The notes under the pieces: model-generated
The model's database searches: none
Told to the model about the DNA's origin: nothing
What the model saw: the letters and a program-made list of their open reading frames with translations, nothing else
Position numbers and translations under genes: made by a program
DNA from: a virus
Lineage: Duplodnaviria; Heunggongvirae; Uroviricota; Caudoviricetes
IMG/VR virus record: IMGVR_UViG_2740892031_000002
DNA length: 29,553 nucleotides
Direction: 5' to 3' (one strand)
Shown: piece after piece, positions 3,055-29,393 of the stretch
How the letters are laid out: every line of letters begins with the position of its first letter
Position numbering within the stretch: the first letter of the stretch is position 1

Positions 3055-4068
3055 TTACTCTACTGTGGACACTGTGTGGACACTCTCGGCCTCAGTACCA
3101 CCTCTTAGCGGATTAAGAGAAATGGCGTCCTGAAGGTACTCTGGCGCAAAATGAGCGTAAACCATAGTTTGCTCAATCCGCGTGTGACCTAGTATCCGTT
3201 GTAGCGTGATAATACTTCCTCCATTAATCATGAAATGAGTGGCAAAGCTGTGCCTTAGTGCATGTGTGGCTTGCCCCATTGGCAAATCCGGTTTTATTGC
3301 TTTCATTGTTCGTCTGAAGCGAGGGTAATCAGCATCAGGGAATAAAAAACCTCGTTTGTTATCCGCGATCATTTTGGCAACAGCCTCTGAGATCGGGACG
3401 GTGCGTGGTTTGTTTGTTTTCGTTTTAACAAACGTGACGCGGTTATGGATGATATTTTCTGCTTTCAAACGAGCTGCTTCTCCCCAACGTGCTCCTGTAC
3501 TTAGGCAAAGAATCGCAATCTTTTTATTGTCGCCGTCAAGTGCTGCAAGCAGTAAGGCTATTTCTTCCTGTGTGAGATAGCCTGTTTCTGGTTTTTCCTC
3601 CTTAAGCCTCTTTGTCCCTCTGATAGGATGTTCACCAAAGAATAACTCCGCTTCAATCAGGGCTGTAAACATGCCGCTAATACATGTTAAATCACGATTG
3701 ATACTCGAAGGTTTAATACCCTGACTTCTTCGGGTGGCGCAGTACTGGCTGATAAGGGATTTCGTGATTTGAAATGCGCATGGGTCATTCGTTATTTTTG
3801 TGAAGATTTCAATTTTTCCAAGATTAGATTTCCCATGCTCTTCGTGTTTACCCTTTAAATCCCACCAGATCTGTGTCAGTTCCGACAGACGTCGTTTGTC
3901 TGTTGGTTTTGATAGCCATTCTTTATTGTGGTGGTTGTACAACGTGTATTTTTCGAAAGCGACAGCTTCGCTTTTCTTATCAAACTTCCTACGGATGCGT
4001 TTTCCGTTACGTCCAGTAGGGCGGATGTCCACTTCATATCGACCATCATCGAGTTTTTTGATTGCCAT
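3055..4068 (-). CDS. int: P2-type tyrosine integrase
   Basis: 337-aa ORF; N-terminus MAIKKLDDGRYEVDIRPTGRNGKRIRRKF and C-terminal catalytic region (HALRHSFATHF ... RILGHTRIEQTMVYAH) as in P2 Int. Confidence 0.95.
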   Translation of the reverse strand: MAIKKLDDGRYEVDIRPTGRNGKRIRRKFDKKSEAVAFEKYTLYNHHNKEWLSKPTDKRRLSELTQIWWDLKGKHEEHGKSNLGKIEIFTKITNDPCAFQITKSLISQYCATRRSQGIKPSSINRDLTCISGMFTALIEAELFFGEHPIRGTKRLKEEKPETGYLTQEEIALLLAALDGDNKKIAILCLSTGARWGEAARLKAENIIHNRVTFVKTKTNKPRTVPISEAVAKMIADNKRGFLFPDADYPRFRRTMKAIKPDLPMGQATHALRHSFATHFMINGGSIITLQRILGHTRIEQTMVYAHFAPEYLQDAISLNPLRGGTEAESVHTVSTVE

Positions 4069-8934: not shown

Positions 8935-9065
8935 TCGAATGGAATGATCCGGCGGTCGTGAGGGCGCTCAGAGGTGCATTAAAACACGGTCTGAGAATAC
9001 CAAATCGTCAGCAAAGAAACGGAAGTCCGTTAAAACCGCTTGCATTTGTGCCATCGCGAGGCTGA
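8921..9065. repeat. Degenerate direct repeat of the 3' end of gene A (partner copy at about 8588-8734)
   Basis: ~145 bp starting ttgatgacgg...atcgaatgga...gtgagggcgctcagaggtgcattaaaa... recurs just after the A stop codon, similar but clearly diverged by eye; the second copy is out of frame and non-coding. Confidence 0.85.
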
Positions 9066-9351
9066 TCAAATCAGGTTTGTGATAAATTACTAGTATTTAT
9101 ATAGACCTCGCTCAGTATGGCATCACACAGAAGTAATGTAAGCGTGGGGGGCGTGGTGTACCATTGATATACGACGGTCGAAAATTTACATAGCCGATTT
9201 CCTGTGATTGGTTTTCGTTATGCACTCTTTTCTGAAGAGATTAACTACTGATAGACTCAGGTTGGATGTCAGAATCGCTATAGATTTCTTGCTATATATG
9301 TATTTTTCAATGAAAATGATCTCTGATTTAAACTGTAGTAAGGTGATTGGT

Positions 9352-9840
9352 ATGGATGGTTTATGGGAAAAAATATCGTCATATAATATATTTAATAATC
9401 TTTTTCCAGGTGCTCTTTTTATTTATCTTCTTGAGAGAATGACGAATATCGTTTTATCTGGCGATGATTTAATAAAAAATGTTGTCCTCTATTATTTTGT
9501 TGGCTTAGTCATTGGCCGGATTGGTTCTATCGTATTGGAACCTTTTTTAAAACTATCGCGTTTGATTAAGTTTGCTCCTTATAAAGATTATGTGTCAGCA
9601 TGTGGTGTGGATGGAAAAATTGAAACTTTGCAAGAGATTGCGAATATGTATAGGACGATATTTTCAATGTCAATTATTCTTTTGGCGACATTGTGCGTTG
9701 TAGGACGGTTTACTGGCGAGACATATGGCTTATCTAAAATAACGTTGGCGGTTTTTGCTATTTTGTTTGTTGTCTCATATATTAAACAAATAAGATACAT
9801 AATATATAGAGTAAATGCTGTTAATAATAAGCTGCCGTAA
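9352..9840 (+). CDS. Hypothetical small multi-pass membrane protein (about 4 predicted TM helices); hotspot cargo
   Basis: Tracked ORF 9208..9840; ATG at 9352 has an AAGGTGA Shine-Dalgarno 5 nt upstream (163 aa). Four hydrophobic stretches (LFPGALFIYLL; VVLYYFVGLVIGRIGSIVL; IFSMSIILLATLCVV; ITLAVFAILFVVSYI). AT-rich; no homolog recognised. Confidence 0.65.
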   Translation: MDGLWEKISSYNIFNNLFPGALFIYLLERMTNIVLSGDDLIKNVVLYYFVGLVIGRIGSIVLEPFLKLSRLIKFAPYKDYVSACGVDGKIETLQEIANMYRTIFSMSIILLATLCVVGRFTGETYGLSKITLAVFAILFVVSYIKQIRYIIYRVNAVNNKLP

Positions 9841-9850
9841 GGCAGCTTTT
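9829..9850. terminator. Bidirectional intrinsic terminator between convergent cargo genes
   Basis: Perfect 8-bp stem aagctgcc / ggcagctt with a gtaa loop that contains the stop codon of the membrane-protein gene, followed by a T-run. Confidence 0.7.
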
Positions 9851-9853
9851 GAA

Positions 9854-10945
9854 TTATTCTTCGGTTCTATAGTTACTAATGTATGATCGTGGAGTGGCTG
9901 TTTTCCATCCTGCCCTTTCAGGAGCATTATAAAAATGGTACTTACCAAGCCCCTCGGTGGCGATAACTTTCGCTCCTCGTCGAGTAAAGGCATTAATTAC
10001 AGCTTGATGGGGATGTTTATCTGAACCTGGGGCACATGATACAAATGCGGTTATCTCCCTTTTTTCGCCTTCATTTACAATGTTACCAACAAGTTTATCG
10101 AGAACATCAGGGCCTACATTTCTCCGGCTACCATGATGAGGTACTTGAATGAATCTTAATGATTCTTTATTAATGTATTGGGAGGCTTGATCTAAGGCTG
10201 TTATACCAGCATCGCCAGTGAACACTAACGTTCTTCCATCAATCTCAAGTTTCAAAATGACACTTGAGTTATTTTGTGCCGAGGTGGTATCTTCATTATC
10301 AATACCTTCATCAGTAAACCATTCAGCAACGTAATCAATAAATTTCTTCGTTTTTTCAACTACAGACTCAAAGACTGCTTTTAGTACTTCAAATCCAGCT
10401 GTATCCTCAGCTTTTTTGGGCATTCTTGCGAAATCAGGTATTAGAGTCTCATAGTAAGATTGGGTTGGCCCGATAACAACCAGAGTAGCATTATCCCAGG
10501 TCATTCCTTGAAAAGGCTCTTTTATTTCAATTCCTTTTTTTTCCGCTAATTTGACAGCGTCATAAGCTTTTTGTAAGTTTTCTTTCATTCGATTTGCAAT
10601 ACTGGCATCAGTTATCCTGCCATCTGCAAACTCACTTGCGAGACCTTGATTATGTTCCCAAGGCTTATGAATCCAAAACTCTTTTACTTCTGCATTTTCT
10701 AGAACAGATGTAAGTCCACCGACGTGGTCACCATCGGGGTGTGTGGAGATAAGCAAGTCAATAGTTTTTGTGCGGTAGTATTTTTCAATATGCTCAATGA
10801 CTTGTTCTCCGGTGCTGGCATATCCTGCATCAATAACGACAACTTTTTGTTCATCTCTTGAACCATGTAGGTTTCCCCATCTGATGCAGATCGCATCGCC
10901 GCTTTTTTTTTCGCCAACAGCTAGAAAATCAATTTCGTAACCCAT
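9854..10945 (-). CDS. Metallo-beta-lactamase-fold hydrolase, ComEC/Rec2-like subtype (putative metal-dependent nuclease); hotspot cargo
   Basis: 363-aa ORF. ComEC-type MBL signatures in order: IDFLAVGEKKSGDAICIRW, KVVVIDAGY, LISTHPDGDHVGG (variant of the HxHxDH motif), LVFTGDAG, QVPHHGS. AT-rich. Confidence 0.8.
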   Translation of the reverse strand: MGYEIDFLAVGEKKSGDAICIRWGNLHGSRDEQKVVVIDAGYASTGEQVIEHIEKYYRTKTIDLLISTHPDGDHVGGLTSVLENAEVKEFWIHKPWEHNQGLASEFADGRITDASIANRMKENLQKAYDAVKLAEKKGIEIKEPFQGMTWDNATLVVIGPTQSYYETLIPDFARMPKKAEDTAGFEVLKAVFESVVEKTKKFIDYVAEWFTDEGIDNEDTTSAQNNSSVILKLEIDGRTLVFTGDAGITALDQASQYINKESLRFIQVPHHGSRRNVGPDVLDKLVGNIVNEGEKREITAFVSCAPGSDKHPHQAVINAFTRRGAKVIATEGLGKYHFYNAPERAGWKTATPRSYISNYRTEE

Positions 10946-11107
10946 TCCATATCCTTATTAAACTGTGAATTAACATGAATCCAAGATGTTAAATCATATG
11001 GATAATAACGCAACTTTTCCGCAGTAAACACTGTGAGCGGATTTAATCTCGTCAGAACTAAAAGCAAGTAGTGTGACGAGGGACAATGAGTCTCTTTGGG
11101 GCGTTGG

Positions 11108-11545
11108 CTATGACACTGACGCAACCAGATTAACGCCGTGAGTCAGCAGATTTGTAATCACACCGGCAATGACCCCAGGAGTCCCATCTTTCACCGCACT
11201 GATCACTTTATCCCCCATCGTTTCATTTCCACCAAGCACCTCGGGTTTTTTGTTAAGAACTGTGAGCGCTTTTTCAGTAAGTCGAACATCGTAAAAATAC
11301 GACTGATGGTCTGTGTTGTACTGAATGTACCCGTTTTCACAGAGAAAATTGAATGTACCTTCAACCACACTACGCAACTGATTTAACGCTTTCATTTCTG
11401 GTGAGTTAAGTTGGTCAAAGTAGTCATCAGGTAGCGCGGCGTTAAATTTGTCGTAGTTAATCACCTGTGGTACGGGAAAATTTTCCCATAGTACTGCAAA
11501 GATTTCCGCCGTTTGTTGGTTAAATAAATCGAGATTTTTCGACAT
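11108..11545 (-). CDS. Hypothetical protein (~145 aa), upstream of and co-directional with the MBL hydrolase
   Basis: Tracked ORF 11108..11647 (179 aa). In-frame ATGs at 11557 and 11545 give 149 or 145 aa; none of the three starts has a convincing Shine-Dalgarno, so the start is uncertain. Hydrophobic, glycine-rich C-terminus (GTPGVIAGVITNLLTHGVNLVASVS). No homolog recognised. Confidence 0.6.
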   Translation of the reverse strand: MSKNLDLFNQQTAEIFAVLWENFPVPQVINYDKFNAALPDDYFDQLNSPEMKALNQLRSVVEGTFNFLCENGYIQYNTDHQSYFYDVRLTEKALTVLNKKPEVLGGNETMGDKVISAVKDGTPGVIAGVITNLLTHGVNLVASVS

Positions 11546-11873
11546 GCAAAATTCCATTTCTTTTGATAATGAGTGGGTTAAACGCTGGACGAGGCAGATT
11601 ACCACTCTGGCACAAAACAATGATCTTAGTTCACGCGAAGTTGACATATATACCGATAAGCTGGTTGCGCAGGCAACTAGCGTAGAACTCGCTCAGGTCA
11701 TCAAGATGCTATTGAATTATATTCGAATGAACAAATAAAATGATCTGTATCAATCTGTTAGGTGTCGTTTGTAAAAATGTGTGGACACGATTGTTCTGCT
11801 AATTGTTGTCAACATGTGCGTCAACAGTGAGATTGGTGCATTGCGCGGCCAGTGACAACTTTAAAAATTGGCC

Positions 11874-11903
11874 AAAACCGGCACTATGAATGCCGGTTTT
11901 TTT
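11874..11903 (+). terminator. Rho-independent terminator (right boundary of the cargo hotspot, before cos)
   Basis: Stem aaaccggca / tgccggttt with 7-nt loop, followed by tttttttgtgttttttt. Confidence 0.75.
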
Positions 11904-12061
11904 GTGTTTTTTTCTGCGATACTCCTATTTTTAGCAGTGCATGCAATATGTGCGTGGTTTTGCATGTGCCTAAGTTGCATGTTCTGGCTGTGCACCGTCA
12001 GGACGGACGCCCCTCAAAAGTGGTAATGCACCTGCATTAAAACCGACCTATGAAGCGGGCG

Positions 12062-20547: not shown

Positions 20548-20977
20548 CGCCGTCACGGTGCTGAAAACCAGTCCCGAGATGCTGCGGATATTCGTGGATA
20601 ACGGGAGTATTGCCTCCACACTGGCGACGTCTATGTCATTCGAAAAGCGTTACACGCTCAATGTGATTGTGACCGACTTTACCGGTGATTTTGACCTGCT
20701 CATTGTGCCGGTGCTGGCGTGGCTGCGGGAAAATCAGCCAGACATCATGACCACCGACGAAGGCCAGAAAAAGGGCTTCACGTTTTATGCAGACATCAAC
20801 AATGACAGCAGCTTTGATATCAGCATCAGCCTGATGCTGACCGAGCGCACGCTGGTCAGTGAGGTGGAAGGCGCGCTACATGTGAAGAATATCCCGGAAC
20901 CTCCGCCGCCGGAGCCGGTTACCCGCCCGATGGAGCTGTATATCAATGGCGAACTGGTGAGCAAGTGGGATGAATGA
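20510..20977 (+). CDS. R: Tail completion protein R
   Basis: 155-aa ORF matching P2 gpR in position and length. Confidence 0.88.
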   Translation: MLKPDSLRRALTDAVTVLKTSPEMLRIFVDNGSIASTLATSMSFEKRYTLNVIVTDFTGDFDLLIVPVLAWLRENQPDIMTTDEGQKKGFTFYADINNDSSFDISISLMLTERTLVSEVEGALHVKNIPEPPPPEPVTRPMELYINGELVSKWDE

Positions 20978-21422
20978 GTTTAAGCGTTTTGAAGACCGGC
21001 TGACCGGACTGACTGAATCGCTGTCACCGTCAGGGCGTCGGCGACTGAGCGCCGAACTGGCGAAACGTCTGCGTCAGAGTCAGCAGCGTCGGGTGATGGC
21101 ACAGAAAGCCCCGGACGGCACACCCTACGTGCCACGCCAGCAGCAGAGCGCCAGAAAAAAGACCGGTCGTGTTAAGCGAAAAATGTTTGCGAAACTTATC
21201 ACCAGTCGTTTTTTGCATATCCGCGCCAGCCCGGAACAGGCATCAATGGAGTTTTACGGCGGGAAGTCGCCGAAAATTGCCAGTGTGCATCAGTTCGGTC
21301 TGTCGGAAGAAACCCGGAAAGACGGTAAGAAAACTGATTATCCGGCGCGTCCTCTGCTCGGCTTTACCGGTGAGGATGTGCAGATGATTGAAGAGATTAT
21401 CCTGGCTCACCTTGAGCGTTAG
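20970..21422 (+). CDS. S: Tail completion protein S
   Basis: 150-aa ORF matching P2 gpS in position and length. Confidence 0.88.
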   Translation: MNEFKRFEDRLTGLTESLSPSGRRRLSAELAKRLRQSQQRRVMAQKAPDGTPYVPRQQQSARKKTGRVKRKMFAKLITSRFLHIRASPEQASMEFYGGKSPKIASVHQFGLSEETRKDGKKTDYPARPLLGFTGEDVQMIEEIILAHLER

Positions 21423-21452
21423 TTTTATCCAGGCAGAGGCTGATGCGCAATT

Positions 21453-21487
21453 AAACATTGAGCGGCCGTGCTGGTCGCTCAATGTTT
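21453..21487. terminator. Hairpin between convergent S and the cargo membrane-protein gene (probable bidirectional terminator)
   Basis: 12-bp stems aaacattgagcg / cgctcaatgttt with an 11-nt loop. Confidence 0.6.
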
Positions 21488-21493
21488 AGAGGT

Positions 21494-22279
21494 TTATGAG
21501 TGGTTTTTATTTGATGCTTTGTATTCTAAAACCTTCTTATTGGCGTAAAGGAATTTTGTGTATGACAGGAATATAAATAGACCTGAAATAAAATAGATTA
21601 GGGATATTATTAATAATGTTTTTCTGTGGCTGTTATTATCTTTAATCTCCTGACTTAACCATTCGGAGTCCTCCTCGTTTAGCTGTAAGAGCTTATTGCA
21701 GGCGATTGCAGGAAGTGTGTCTGTTACAAAAGTGTTCTGCAGTCTCTTGCAATCGGCAATGCTAAAAGCTTTATAGAACTTATCTGTTTTATTGTCGGAG
21801 AACAAAAGAACCTTGTCATTATAAACATGGTACATCATATTTTTATATGGTATGGCTATGGCATCCTCTACTATGGCAGATTGCTCGTTGTGTATGCAAC
21901 ATGCGAAGATAATATAAAGAATTCCGGCCAGGACTGCACTCATTGTTTTTGTGATGCATGGCGGTTCTGTTATGTCTCCCCAGAAGCGAGTAAGGAAAAA
22001 ATCCGATGTTTTTAGTTTTCCATCAATCAGCCCCTGCTGTATCATTCTCACATCTTCGATGCCTGATACATTGATTCCGTTAAGTATTTTAAATAGTTGA
22101 ATGTCGCGCCACTCGCGGTCCAGTCTTTTTAATTTTTTGTCTGAATATCCAAATTTGAAATAATGTGCAATAAGCCTCATAAGGTTACTTTTACCAAAGC
22201 TAAAAAATGCTAATACTGCAAAGACCAAAAGATACAAAACGATTAGCTCCCACACATTAGTCACATTATAGCTGACCAT
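21494..22279 (-). CDS. Hypothetical multi-pass membrane protein at the S-V (P2 orf30) accessory locus
   Basis: 261-aa ORF; AAGGAG Shine-Dalgarno 6 nt upstream of the ATG. Hydrophobic helices near the N-terminus (VWELIVLYLLVFAVLAFFSF), mid-protein (TMSAVLAGILYIIFACCI) and C-terminus (LLIISLIYFISGLFIFLSY). Strongly AT-rich; no homolog recognised. Confidence 0.8.
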   Translation of the reverse strand: MVSYNVTNVWELIVLYLLVFAVLAFFSFGKSNLMRLIAHYFKFGYSDKKLKRLDREWRDIQLFKILNGINVSGIEDVRMIQQGLIDGKLKTSDFFLTRFWGDITEPPCITKTMSAVLAGILYIIFACCIHNEQSAIVEDAIAIPYKNMMYHVYNDKVLLFSDNKTDKFYKAFSIADCKRLQNTFVTDTLPAIACNKLLQLNEEDSEWLSQEIKDNNSHRKTLLIISLIYFISGLFIFLSYTKFLYANKKVLEYKASNKNHS

Positions 22280-22362
22280 TACGCTCTCCTTGAATGTTGT
22301 CTGGTGGTTCTACAAATGAATCCAGATAGCATAACTTTTATATATTGTGCAATCTCACATGC

Positions 22363-22998
22363 ATGGACACTCTCGCAAATATTCAGGAACTCGCGCGCGC
22401 ACTGCGCAACATGATTCGTACCGGCATTATCGTTGAAACCGACCTTAACGCCGGTCGCTGCCGTGTGCAGACCGGCGGCATGTGCACCGACTGGCTTCAG
22501 TGGCTGACCCATCGCGCCGGACGTTCGCGCACATGGTGGGCACCTTCCGTGGGGGAACAGGTGCTGATTCTGGCCGTGGGCGGTGAACTCGACACGGCGT
22601 TCGTTCTGCCGGGGATTTATTCCGGCGATAACCCTGCGCCGTCTGCGTCGGCGGATGCCCTGCATATCCGTTTCCCTGACGGGGCGGTGATTGAGTATGA
22701 ACCCGAAACCAGTGCGCTTACGGTAAGCGGAATTAAAACGGCCAGCGTGACGGCTTCTGATTCTGTTACTGCCACGGTGCCGGTGGTCATGGTGAAAGCA
22801 TCAACCCGCATCACTCTGGACACGCCGGAGGTGGTCTGCACAAACAAGCTGATCACCGGCACGCTGGAAGTGCAGAAGGGCGGGACGATGCGCGGCAACA
22901 TTGAACACACCGGCGGTGAACTCTCATCAAACGGTAAGGTACTGCATACCCATAAACACCCCGGCGACAGCGGCGGCACAACCGGGAGTCCTTTATGA
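22363..22998 (+). CDS. V: Baseplate central spike protein
   Basis: Tracked ORF 22345..22998; ATG at 22363 gives 211 aa matching P2 gpV (C-terminal HTHKHPGDSGGTTGSPL). Confidence 0.9.
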   Translation: MDTLANIQELARALRNMIRTGIIVETDLNAGRCRVQTGGMCTDWLQWLTHRAGRSRTWWAPSVGEQVLILAVGGELDTAFVLPGIYSGDNPAPSASADALHIRFPDGAVIEYEPETSALTVSGIKTASVTASDSVTATVPVVMVKASTRITLDTPEVVCTNKLITGTLEVQKGGTMRGNIEHTGGELSSNGKVLHTHKHPGDSGGTTGSPL

Positions 22999-27985: not shown

Positions 27986-28313
27986 ATCGTATTAGCTCTG
28001 GTGTGAGATTACTCATCTATGGCACAGAGTAAAACCTAATCTGACTGTCCGCTCTGTGCTAGGAGCGGACGTGATGCATATCTGTCACCAAATTTAATGT
28101 GCCACTACAAACAGAGTATATAGTTGAATATTATAGTGCACCCCGGCCTCATGAATATAACGGTGGATTACCGCCGAACGAGTCGGAAAATAGATACTGG
28201 AAAAACTCTAAAATCGAGGCCAGTTTTTGTTGTTCTCTACAATAATAATCGGATTTTCCCATGACAAGTTTAATAGTATTTAGGTGCCTGAAGTGAAGTT
28301 GAAGAAGCTATTG

Positions 28314-29393
28314 ATGAAAGTTGTGAAAGTGGTAAAGGAGCAGGTTCTAAGTACCGTTATTTCGGGAATAATAGGCATAGCGGCTACAGTAGGGCTTTTC
28401 CATTTCACTTCACAGCCAATACGATCTGCTGATGTTCGCGAAAAATTAGTTGAAATGGCTCGGGAGTGCATCCAGCAGCAGCTTGCCACACATTTGGACT
28501 CAGTGGCGTTTGACTCAGTGGCTAGCGAGTCTCTCGATCTAAGCACCTCAAACTCCGTTGTAGTCTACGGAAGAACTGTGAGCACAAATGGTGCCCTTAG
28601 CCGTTTCCTGATGGTCTTCGAGCCCTCTGGACAGAGTTTGATAGATAAGGTGGTTGGCAGACCTGGATTCTACGATATTGGGTATTGGGCAATCATCCCA
28701 GACGCAGGGGACGACGAGGTTGTGGCTTCTTCAGTAAACATTGAAGACCTCGACAAAGATGGTAACAAGGACATACTAGTCCGCTTAAAGTCAACTTACG
28801 CGGATGGTGTATCCAAAGGGCTTCTTATACTTAAAAAGGATATCCATGATGTATGGCATTTGATGGGGCTTCCATCAATGACAGAGATCATGCATTCCAT
28901 TGCTGCAGGTCAGCCTCCCCAGCCGGAAGGTCTTCACCTTCCACTTCCGGCAATACAATGGTTTAGTAATGACGAAAAACTCAAACCAAAGTCTGATATC
29001 AAACAATATCTTAATTGGGAAATTGACGAAGATAACTTGCAGGTCGCTGATTCCACTGGAAATCATTCTTTTTGGATGTTCAGAAACGGCACCAAGATAA
29101 AAATGTTCGAGAATGGACAAGCCGGCTACAAGCACTTTGGTGTACTGGTCAACATCAATGATGAAGAGGCGATACAGGGAAGGCATCATCTCATGGTCAG
29201 CTTTTTCAAGATAGAGAATAATAGTTTGGTTCCTGATCCGAATTGGAACTGGGCCTATCCCATGTTCTCTATCGGATTAGAGGATAGCCAAGAAGTTGAA
29301 TTAAGTGACATGCAGGAAGCGGGCTTACAAGCTCATGTTTCTGGTAGCTCCGTTTTCGGCCTGACAGAGTTTGGGAAAATGGACTCAGATTAA
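28314..29393 (+). CDS. Hypothetical N-terminally membrane-anchored protein at the G-FI (P2 Z/fun) accessory locus
   Basis: Tracked ORF 28284..29393 starts at GTG; in-frame ATG at 28314 (MKVVKVVKEQ) is equally plausible. One N-terminal TM helix (VLSTVISGIIGIAATVGLF) followed by a ~330-aa soluble domain. AT-rich, separated from G by ~300 bp of AT-rich non-coding DNA; no homolog recognised. Confidence 0.75.
   Translation: MKVVKVVKEQVLSTVISGIIGIAATVGLFHFTSQPIRSADVREKLVEMARECIQQQLATHLDSVAFDSVASESLDLSTSNSVVVYGRTVSTNGALSRFLMVFEPSGQSLIDKVVGRPGFYDIGYWAIIPDAGDDEVVASSVNIEDLDKDGNKDILVRLKSTYADGVSKGLLILKKDIHDVWHLMGLPSMTEIMHSIAAGQPPQPEGLHLPLPAIQWFSNDEKLKPKSDIKQYLNWEIDEDNLQVADSTGNHSFWMFRNGTKIKMFENGQAGYKHFGVLVNINDEEAIQGRHHLMVSFFKIENNSLVPDPNWNWAYPMFSIGLEDSQEVELSDMQEAGLQAHVSGSSVFGLTEFGKMDSD

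Follow-up and report, generated by a model that had tools for sequence, protein, structure and literature searches.

Orf30 of P2-like prophages, a predicted three-segment inner-membrane protein related to DUF6216, in a low-occupancy cargo slot between the tail genes S and V

Three nonessential genes of phage P2, old, tin and fun, turned out to act in phage exclusion, and the current picture of prophage defence hotspots grew out of them. The two P2 hotspots, old/tin between A and the portal gene Q (hotspot #1) and Z/fun (hotspot #2), are AT-rich polymorphic sites, at which unrelated genes are swapped at fixed junctions. Exclusion is likewise experimentally established for SieA of phage P22, a small, prophage-encoded polytopic inner-membrane protein of 164 aa, the gene of which directly follows a late structural gene, in antisense orientation, and is transcribed from a promoter of its own. 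Lambda RexB, which needs RexA, and P22 SieB are further membrane proteins encoded by prophages, both of them components of abortive exclusion and expressed in the lysogen. Here, the intergenic interval between the tail genes S and V (21423..22362, 940 bp) of a P2-like prophage was analysed. The prophage is contained in IMG/VR record IMGVR_UViG_2740892031_000002, and the whole stretch of 29,553 nucleotides is referred to as the window, on which all positions are given. The interval contains one long open reading frame (ORF), an allele of P2 orf30, and its product is tentatively proposed as a superinfection-exclusion factor of the inner membrane.

The coding sequence of orf30 (21494..22279, − strand; 261 codons + stop, ATG start) was taken from the ORF list and compared with P2 using BLASTP. 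Its product aligned with P2 Orf30 (AAD03281.1; AF063097 9439-10224) over residues 1-261 without gaps (81% identity, E 1e-161), and the 49 substitutions were concentrated in the first and second transmembrane segments (TM1, TM2) and the first half of loop 2. On the DNA level, the S–V region was 91% identical to phage P2, with the same slot and the same antisense orientation, and the gene order at the slot corresponded to AF063097 and six other Peduovirus records. PHROG 2407, a family of unknown function, was matched over residues 1-261 of 261 (E 2.6e-137). The whole window was 96-97% identical to P2, and the S-orf30-V segment (20970-22998) was 100% identical to E. coli strain 4/1-1. Judged by sequence, the window gene is an allele (ortholog) of phage P2 orf30 and hence an already-annotated gene; its identity and architecture are regarded as practically certain. 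The initial annotation had described an ORF of 261 aa on the opposite strand between S and V, at the P2 orf30 site as a less-studied accessory site, and had called for comparison with P2 orf30. ORF and placement were both confirmed and the comparison gave clear orthology; the orf30 region is listed, with TO and Z, as one of three variable regions in P2-like phages (PMC3091744).

The P2 annotation of orf30 reads "nonessential", and no function was found assigned to it in the searchable literature. In phage R18C, another ORF takes the place of orf30 (PMC6823313). Proteins identical to that of the window are encoded on 995 public contigs, on each of which the product is called "hypothetical protein". 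In the classical P2 host strain, E. coli C (NZ_CP029371.1 7129-8867), orf30, part of S, and V were detected; the locus looks like a rearranged P2-like remnant, with a portal gene annotated under the same match. A 579-bp contig of an assembly from the actinomycete Actinacidiphila (JANCAF010000122.1) encoded the first 49 Orf30 residues at 86% identity; contamination of that assembly with E. coli or phage DNA is the likeliest source.

Occupancy of the S–V slot was determined in two sets. Among 5426 complete E. coli genomes, 1583 (about 29%) had a P2-like S–V region and 460 carried orf30; most of the remaining S–V regions were empty, S and V being 66 bp apart. For the second set, P2-like viral contigs were retrieved by means of gpV, and 78 of them were usable; the slot was empty in 55, occupied by the Orf30 family in 17 and by other cargo in 6. 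Orf30 was the commonest cargo, and about 70% of the P2-like elements had an empty slot. The six other cargos were HNH-like (twice), a 247-aa protein of unknown type, RelA_SpoT, AAA + TIR_2 and an AAA ATPase. In the loci with alternative cargo (L011, L013-L015, L121, L141, L142, L181, L182, L115, L098, L100), the sizes were 359-363 aa for RelA_SpoT, 508 aa for AAA + TIR_2, 414 aa for the AAA ATPase, 246-251 aa for the HNH-like proteins (two ORFs in L013), 445 aa for a DUF4062 protein, and 247 aa and 273 aa for unknowns. The RelA_SpoT cargo matched the PADLOC candidate PDC-S33. Some alternative cargos co-occurred with an Orf30-family gene, as did the DUF4062 protein in L115. In Burkholderia phages, the same slot carries the Old-like KS5 gp28 or a KL3 methylase (PMC3091744).

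The junctions were sharp: between slot variants, similarity was lost directly behind the S stop codon and regained where V starts, every cassette having a hairpin and a pV upstream region of its own. The S–V slot is therefore a low-occupancy cargo site, the other contents of which are typical of phage defence and counter-defence. It resembles the P2 hotspots in its AT-rich, polymorphic nature and in the swapping of unrelated genes at fixed borders, but differs from them in being usually empty, in usually holding one gene and in being dominated by one protein family; moreover, it has not been treated as a hotspot in the defence-hotspot studies. A TGT-N(10-12)-ACA element, presumably the Ogr site, was observed upstream of V in every slot variant, empty ones included, each with its own version (window 22280-22362; L011, L012, L014, L015). 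A similar element, GTTGTG..CA, was also present behind the stop codon of S in the cassettes with RelA_SpoT and with the 247-aa protein, which gives the impression of a duplication of the site on insertion.

The family was delimited by an exhaustive HMMER search; a word-indexed protein search stopped at relatives of at least 77% identity and the use of a profile or of P0024 (a bona fide DUF6216 member from Sodalis) as query added little. Of the 42 representatives that the exhaustive search gave, about 25 were of full length (250-270 aa). Common to the family were three membrane segments, a motif in loop 1, a cysteine pair in loop 2 and a basic tail. The loop 1 motif reads Q61-G68-D76-G87, and the cytoplasmic domain that contains it holds most of the invariant columns; across 26 family members, C194 was invariant and C177 at least 90% conserved, and K254 was nearly invariant. 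Architecture, motif and cysteine pair were retained down to 19% identity.

No Pfam match was obtained for the window protein even at E 1, the gathering score of DUF6216 (27.3 bits) was not reached, and NCBIfam gave no match either. P0024 scored 28.9 bits against DUF6216 (PF19723; profile positions 10-265 of 270), 10 of the 26 aligned members matched the same entry weakly, and the Orf30-clade profile matched P0024 over its full length (E 1.4e-11). Alignment of the Orf30 clade with 15 distant members by hhalign yielded a probability of 99.8% (E 8.9e-29, 230 columns). Since P0024 passes the gathering score and the profile alignment reaches this probability, Orf30 is a divergent branch of DUF6216 that had not been recognised as such; the function of that family is unknown. 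Orf30 belongs to the same length class and has the same three-TM architecture, and differs in that the window protein itself has no reportable Pfam score. Pattern scans with P0024 and P0017 returned no viral loci.

The initial annotation had predicted a multi-pass membrane protein, which was borne out, with paired N-terminal TM helices and two further helices around a single loop of ~100 aa, which was not. Kyte-Doolittle hydropathy gave three hydrophobic segments (about 9-30, 111-130 and 220-241), all with peaks >2.0, instead of four helices. A structure was modelled with AlphaFold (AF2) on the 26-sequence alignment (predicted local distance difference test, pLDDT, 82; predicted template modelling score, pTM, 0.72); a model on a 5-sequence alignment was unusable (pLDDT 55). 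In the model, the presumed N-terminal helix pair is one long helix (6-40), comprising TM1 and an amphipathic extension, and instead of a single loop there are two soluble stretches, of about 80 and 85 aa. The long helix is followed by a helical domain (48-100), TM2 (109-134), four beta strands (141-173), two helices (174-181 and 189-202) that hold both cysteines within the 174-202 region, and a single long helix (205-260) that includes TM3.

On the DNA, all features being on the − strand, TM1 (residues about 9-30) is encoded at 22190..22255 and coincides with the AF2 helix 6-40; no charged residue precedes it in residues 1-8, and it is predicted to be an N-out signal anchor. The predicted cytoplasmic helical domain (residues 31-108; 21956..22189) contains 15 K/R vs 10 D/E, with a helix pLDDT of 78-94. 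TM2 (residues 109-134; 21878..21955) is supported by hydropathy and by an AF2 helix. The predicted periplasmic alpha/beta domain (residues 135-219; 21623..21877) contains the four strands, the two helices, C177 and C194 and has a net negative charge, whereas loop 1 and the tail are net positive. TM3 (residues 220-243) and the basic cytoplasmic tail (244-261) are encoded at 21497..21622, as assigned from hydropathy, charge counts and AF2. Because of this charge distribution and the conserved cysteine pair, Orf30 is predicted to be a three-TM inner-membrane protein of N-out / C-in topology, with loop 1 in the cytoplasm and loop 2 in the periplasm; the periplasmic domain would be stabilised by a disulfide. 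Conserved residues of a catalytic type were not found in Orf30, and PDB sequence searches gave no match. The claudin / TARP-gamma fold, which combines membrane helices with an extracytoplasmic beta-sheet, was considered; its members have four TM helices vs three, and it is treated as no match.

In five deep clades of P2-like phages, family members were located between V and S on the antisense strand, down to 19% identity. Among these were viral contigs and an Enterobacter metagenome-assembled genome (35-39% identity to Orf30; L098-L103, L021), the P0025 clade (24%; L105-L108), P0024 of Sodalis (23%; L109) and P0035 (19%; L115). In the 35-39% and 24% clades, V was 80-86% and S 47-51% identical; divergence of the cargo protein thus far exceeds that of the proteins beside it, unless strongly diverged alleles have been brought in by exchange. 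The value of 47-51% for gpS between L098-L108, L021 and the window stands against 69-86% for the neighbours R, V and W, and gpS, which borders the slot, may have been exchanged together with the cargo.

Family members were also detected outside the slot. One DUF6216 member adjoins a portal gene, which corresponds to the hotspot #1 position of P2. In a 186-like prophage of Pantoea sp. ARC270 (L006), the family gene reads in the cI-int direction and its start shares 8 nt with the end of int, an arrangement suggestive of co-transcription with cI-int in the lysogen. Pantoea sp. S-LA4 (L003) carries the gene at the same chromosomal site (acetyltransferase, aroF-tyrA), with the prophage absent and a 79-aa ORF in front of it, so that the gene seems to survive loss of the prophage. 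Solitary AT-rich islets of the family gene were present among ordinary chromosomal genes in Enterobacter and elsewhere, and envelope redox genes were among the neighbours (DsbD in Enterobacter, DsbA beside P0017). No conserved partner gene was found, which marks orf30 as a single-gene module, and no toxin gene was adjacent to family members in any context examined. Overall, orf30 is a dispensable, horizontally mobile module.

Sequence variation was analysed in alleles from viral contigs, 70 of 71 of which were intact 261-codon ORFs. Together with the reference phages and the window, 56 nucleotide alleles encoding 46 proteins were obtained, in four allele groups, with a nucleotide divergence of up to 14.6% and no length variation or indels; the window allele and P2 orf30 belong to different groups. 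Pairwise dN/dS was 0.46 for orf30 vs 0.07-0.12 for R, S, V and W, and a tree-based count gave an overall value of 0.41 for orf30. By segment, dN/dS was 1.13 in TM1, 0.38 in the cytoplasmic domain (loop 1), 0.35 in the first half of loop 2 (residues 135-190), 0.10 in its second half (residues 191-219) and 0.85 in TM3, the high values of TM1 and TM3 reflecting swaps among hydrophobic residues. The gene evolves several times faster than its neighbours yet is under purifying selection. An arms-race hypothesis was rejected, since a count modelled on single-likelihood ancestor counting (SLAC-like) gave no significant site.

The slot is bordered on the left by gene S, for tail completion / virion morphogenesis (20970..21422, + strand; Pfam PF05069 Phage_tail_S, E 3.7e-43; P2 gene S in AF063097), and on the right by gene V, for the baseplate spike (22363..22998, + strand; Phage_base_V, E 3.5e-20; Phage_spike, E 8.9e-29; P2 gene V). 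At 36.3% GC (GC3 40%), orf30 is set apart from S (54.5%) and V (59.4%), in agreement with the earlier remark on a composition unlike that of the flanking late genes, and the strong Shine-Dalgarno sequence AAGGAG was found as described, 6 nt upstream of the ATG (22291..22286, − strand). Between the stop codons of S and orf30, an inverted repeat (21451..21489, both strands) was predicted to fold into a hairpin of −29.3 kcal/mol on the + and −20.9 kcal/mol on the − strand (z −6.0 / −5.5), and 0 of 200 shuffled sequences folded as stably. Its P2 counterpart (9397-9433) is annotated as the putative rho-independent terminator of the O operon. The U-tracts are weak on both strands and the T-runs short, and a simple terminator scan made no call, loop and stem being outside its rules. 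Of the hairpin terminator shared with S in the initial annotation, the stable hairpin thus stood and the terminator role is plausible only; the hairpin may stop transcription from both sides, that of the late O operon and that of orf30. Rfam yielded nothing beyond a chance microRNA match at the hairpin, far below the gathering score, and a weaker match to the model of the small RNA IsrM (E 0.8).

Upstream of V, the pV region of the window was nearly identical to that of P2, and the Ogr activator-binding site of the late pV promoter was placed at 22294..22321 (+ strand) by homology to the P2 annotation (10239-10266). Any promoter of orf30 must fall in the 83-bp divergent region that is common with pV, or inside V.

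Envelope-level superinfection exclusion, in which genome entry is blocked, is put forward as the single most likely mechanism for Orf30, with confidence that stays tentative. It is suggested by an architecture that is small, polytopic and non-enzymatic and includes a periplasmic domain, by the defence-type company in the S–V slot, by the hint of lysogenic co-transcription in Pantoea and by the parallel with P22 sieA. In the proposed mechanism, orf30 would be transcribed in the lysogen at a low or conditional level, apart from the Ogr-dependent late operons, and Orf30 would act at the inner membrane as a non-enzymatic exclusion factor. Its periplasmic domain would meet the genome-delivery machinery of an incoming phage, or a host membrane protein used by that phage, and DNA entry would be blocked; the conserved cytoplasmic domain may stabilise the protein or allow oligomerisation. 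P22 SieA serves as the working model, given its shared polytopic inner-membrane nature and antisense position after a late structural gene, although SieA is shorter (164 vs 261 aa), its exclusion has been established by experiment, and its gene has a promoter of its own, none being recognisable for orf30. Relative to RexB, the difference is that Orf30 has no conserved partner gene.

Several results weigh against this proposal. PADLOC-DB v2 gave no family match for the window protein at E up to 10, and hhalign comparison with SieA (0.25% probability), SieB (0.2%) and RexB (0.27%) indicated no homology. The Orf30 model had no significant structural neighbour in BFVD or PDB, no sigma-70-like promoter beating shuffled sequence was found upstream of orf30 and 11 relatives (12 family members), and no positively selected codon was significant in the Orf30 clade. 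The exclusion phenotypes of P2 are attributed to old, tin and fun. Two published studies of the P2 hotspots and defence do not mention orf30, and in the passages of a functional-selection defence study that deal with P2-like elements, the two other hotspots are the only ones named. Finally, a function in the phage's own life cycle would be another reading of the synteny with the tail and lysis module, which reaches very deep. The initial annotation's lysogenic-conversion or superinfection-exclusion candidate is still reasonable as a hypothesis, favoured by the defence-type cargos of the slot and the Pantoea hint; the negative results with the family databases, the known exclusion proteins, the promoter search and the selection analysis speak against it.

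Such a life-cycle role would consist in lysis timing or holin modulation, in blocking re-infection or tail attack of producing cells, or in tail/spike passage at the inner membrane, and it is considered unlikely. In five clades, the family gene is found antisense at the same place, directly behind the lysis cassette, a persistence hardly to be expected of random cargo; the spike gene V is its immediate neighbour and has the pV regulatory region in common with it; and its predicted topology is that of class I holins, which have three TMs, N-out and C-in. Yet orf30 is annotated as nonessential in P2, is missing from about 70% of natural P2-like elements, is oriented against both late operons and has a hairpin of its own at its end, and the family also occurs beside int, beside a portal gene and in phage-free chromosomal islets. 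With 261 aa and two ~80-aa soluble domains, the protein is moreover unlike holins or antiholins. A class I holin proper (about 70-150 aa, three close TMs, beside the endolysin) was rejected on size and position, orf30 being downstream of R and S and outside the Y-K lysis cassette. Somewhat less probable still is an abortive-infection membrane effector, which would be inert in the lysogen, sense a phage, oligomerise and depolarise or permeabilise the inner membrane, killing the cell before the invader replicates. Slots that otherwise hold abortive-type genes (RelA_SpoT, AAA-TIR) would suit a single-gene membrane module of this sort, as an apparently weak or silent promoter and an AT-rich composition like that of H-NS targets would suit a potentially toxic gene, and the conserved cytoplasmic domain is a possible sensor; but homology to RexB or to PADLOC membrane effectors is missing, and three TMs only, of which TM1 and TM3 drift (dN/dS about 1), make a precisely packed pore unlikely.

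A lysogenic-conversion factor of phage-independent benefit to the host, conferring immunity to membrane-targeting toxins (pore-forming colicins, tailocins, effectors of type VI secretion or contact-dependent inhibition systems) or envelope-stress tolerance, is judged improbable. A polytopic inner-membrane protein with a periplasmic domain would be apt for this task, solitary copies are kept in Enterobacter and Pantoea chromosomes without a phage, and some members adjoin the envelope redox genes DsbD and DsbA. Most occurrences are inside P2-like prophages, however, the contexts examined contained no adjacent toxin gene, and the sole colicin-immunity Pfam match, in one member, was non-significant (E 0.11). 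Disfavoured, and very improbable, is an AT-rich passenger without function, the silenced remnant of a gene that is carried along in an intergenic site prone to recombination. The undetectable promoter, the dispensability and frequent absence of orf30 and its AT-rich, foreign-looking composition would be expected of a remnant, but not the intactness of 70 of 71 alleles free of indels up to 14.6% nucleotide divergence, dN/dS values of 0.1-0.4 in the soluble domains, an architecture, motif and cysteine pair kept to 19% identity, or a strong Shine-Dalgarno sequence.

Elsewhere in the window, an AT-rich region (9001-12000, 36-42% GC) was observed in the replication-to-portal position of hotspot #1, with ORFs at 9208-9840 (+), 9854-10945 (−) and 11108-11647 (−). 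A two-gene PADLOC candidate was detected in it, consisting of PDC-M48A (E 1.5e-50) and PDC-M48B (E 1.1e-100, metallo-beta-lactamase fold), alongside a 179-aa ORF with no match. A 369-aa ORF (28284-29393, +; GC 43-46%) follows the tail-fibre genes at about the P2 Z/fun place (hotspot #2) and gave no Pfam or PADLOC match. At the left end of the window, host genes for a DeoR-family regulator (128-907) and a YegS-like lipid kinase (989-1888) were present; the left boundary of the prophage should be located between about 1.9 and 3 kb, beside a 337-aa ORF (3055-4068), which we take to be the integrase.

The presence of orf30 at the S–V site will be no surprise to P2 specialists, and as a known gene it is of modest interest in itself. 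New are the link to DUF6216, the corrected topology, the selection pattern, the conservation of the slot across Peduoviridae and the slot census. P2 is a model temperate phage, P2-like prophages occur in about 29% of complete E. coli genomes, and orf30 is a concrete and cheap experimental target. It is conceivable, though rather doubtful, that Orf30/DUF6216 is the founding member of a new single-gene inner-membrane exclusion/anti-phage family, ancestral to the Peduoviridae S–V position, and that S–V is an overlooked third P2 defence hotspot. If so, this hotspot would be of low occupancy and dominated by a membrane protein, exchanging it with TIR-ATPase, RelA/SpoT, HNH-like, Old-like and DUF4062 cargos. 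Should Orf30 have a role in the phage life cycle, its unusual synteny would be explained; should it be an exclusion factor, it would represent a new membrane-level mechanism and add a third hotspot to P2.

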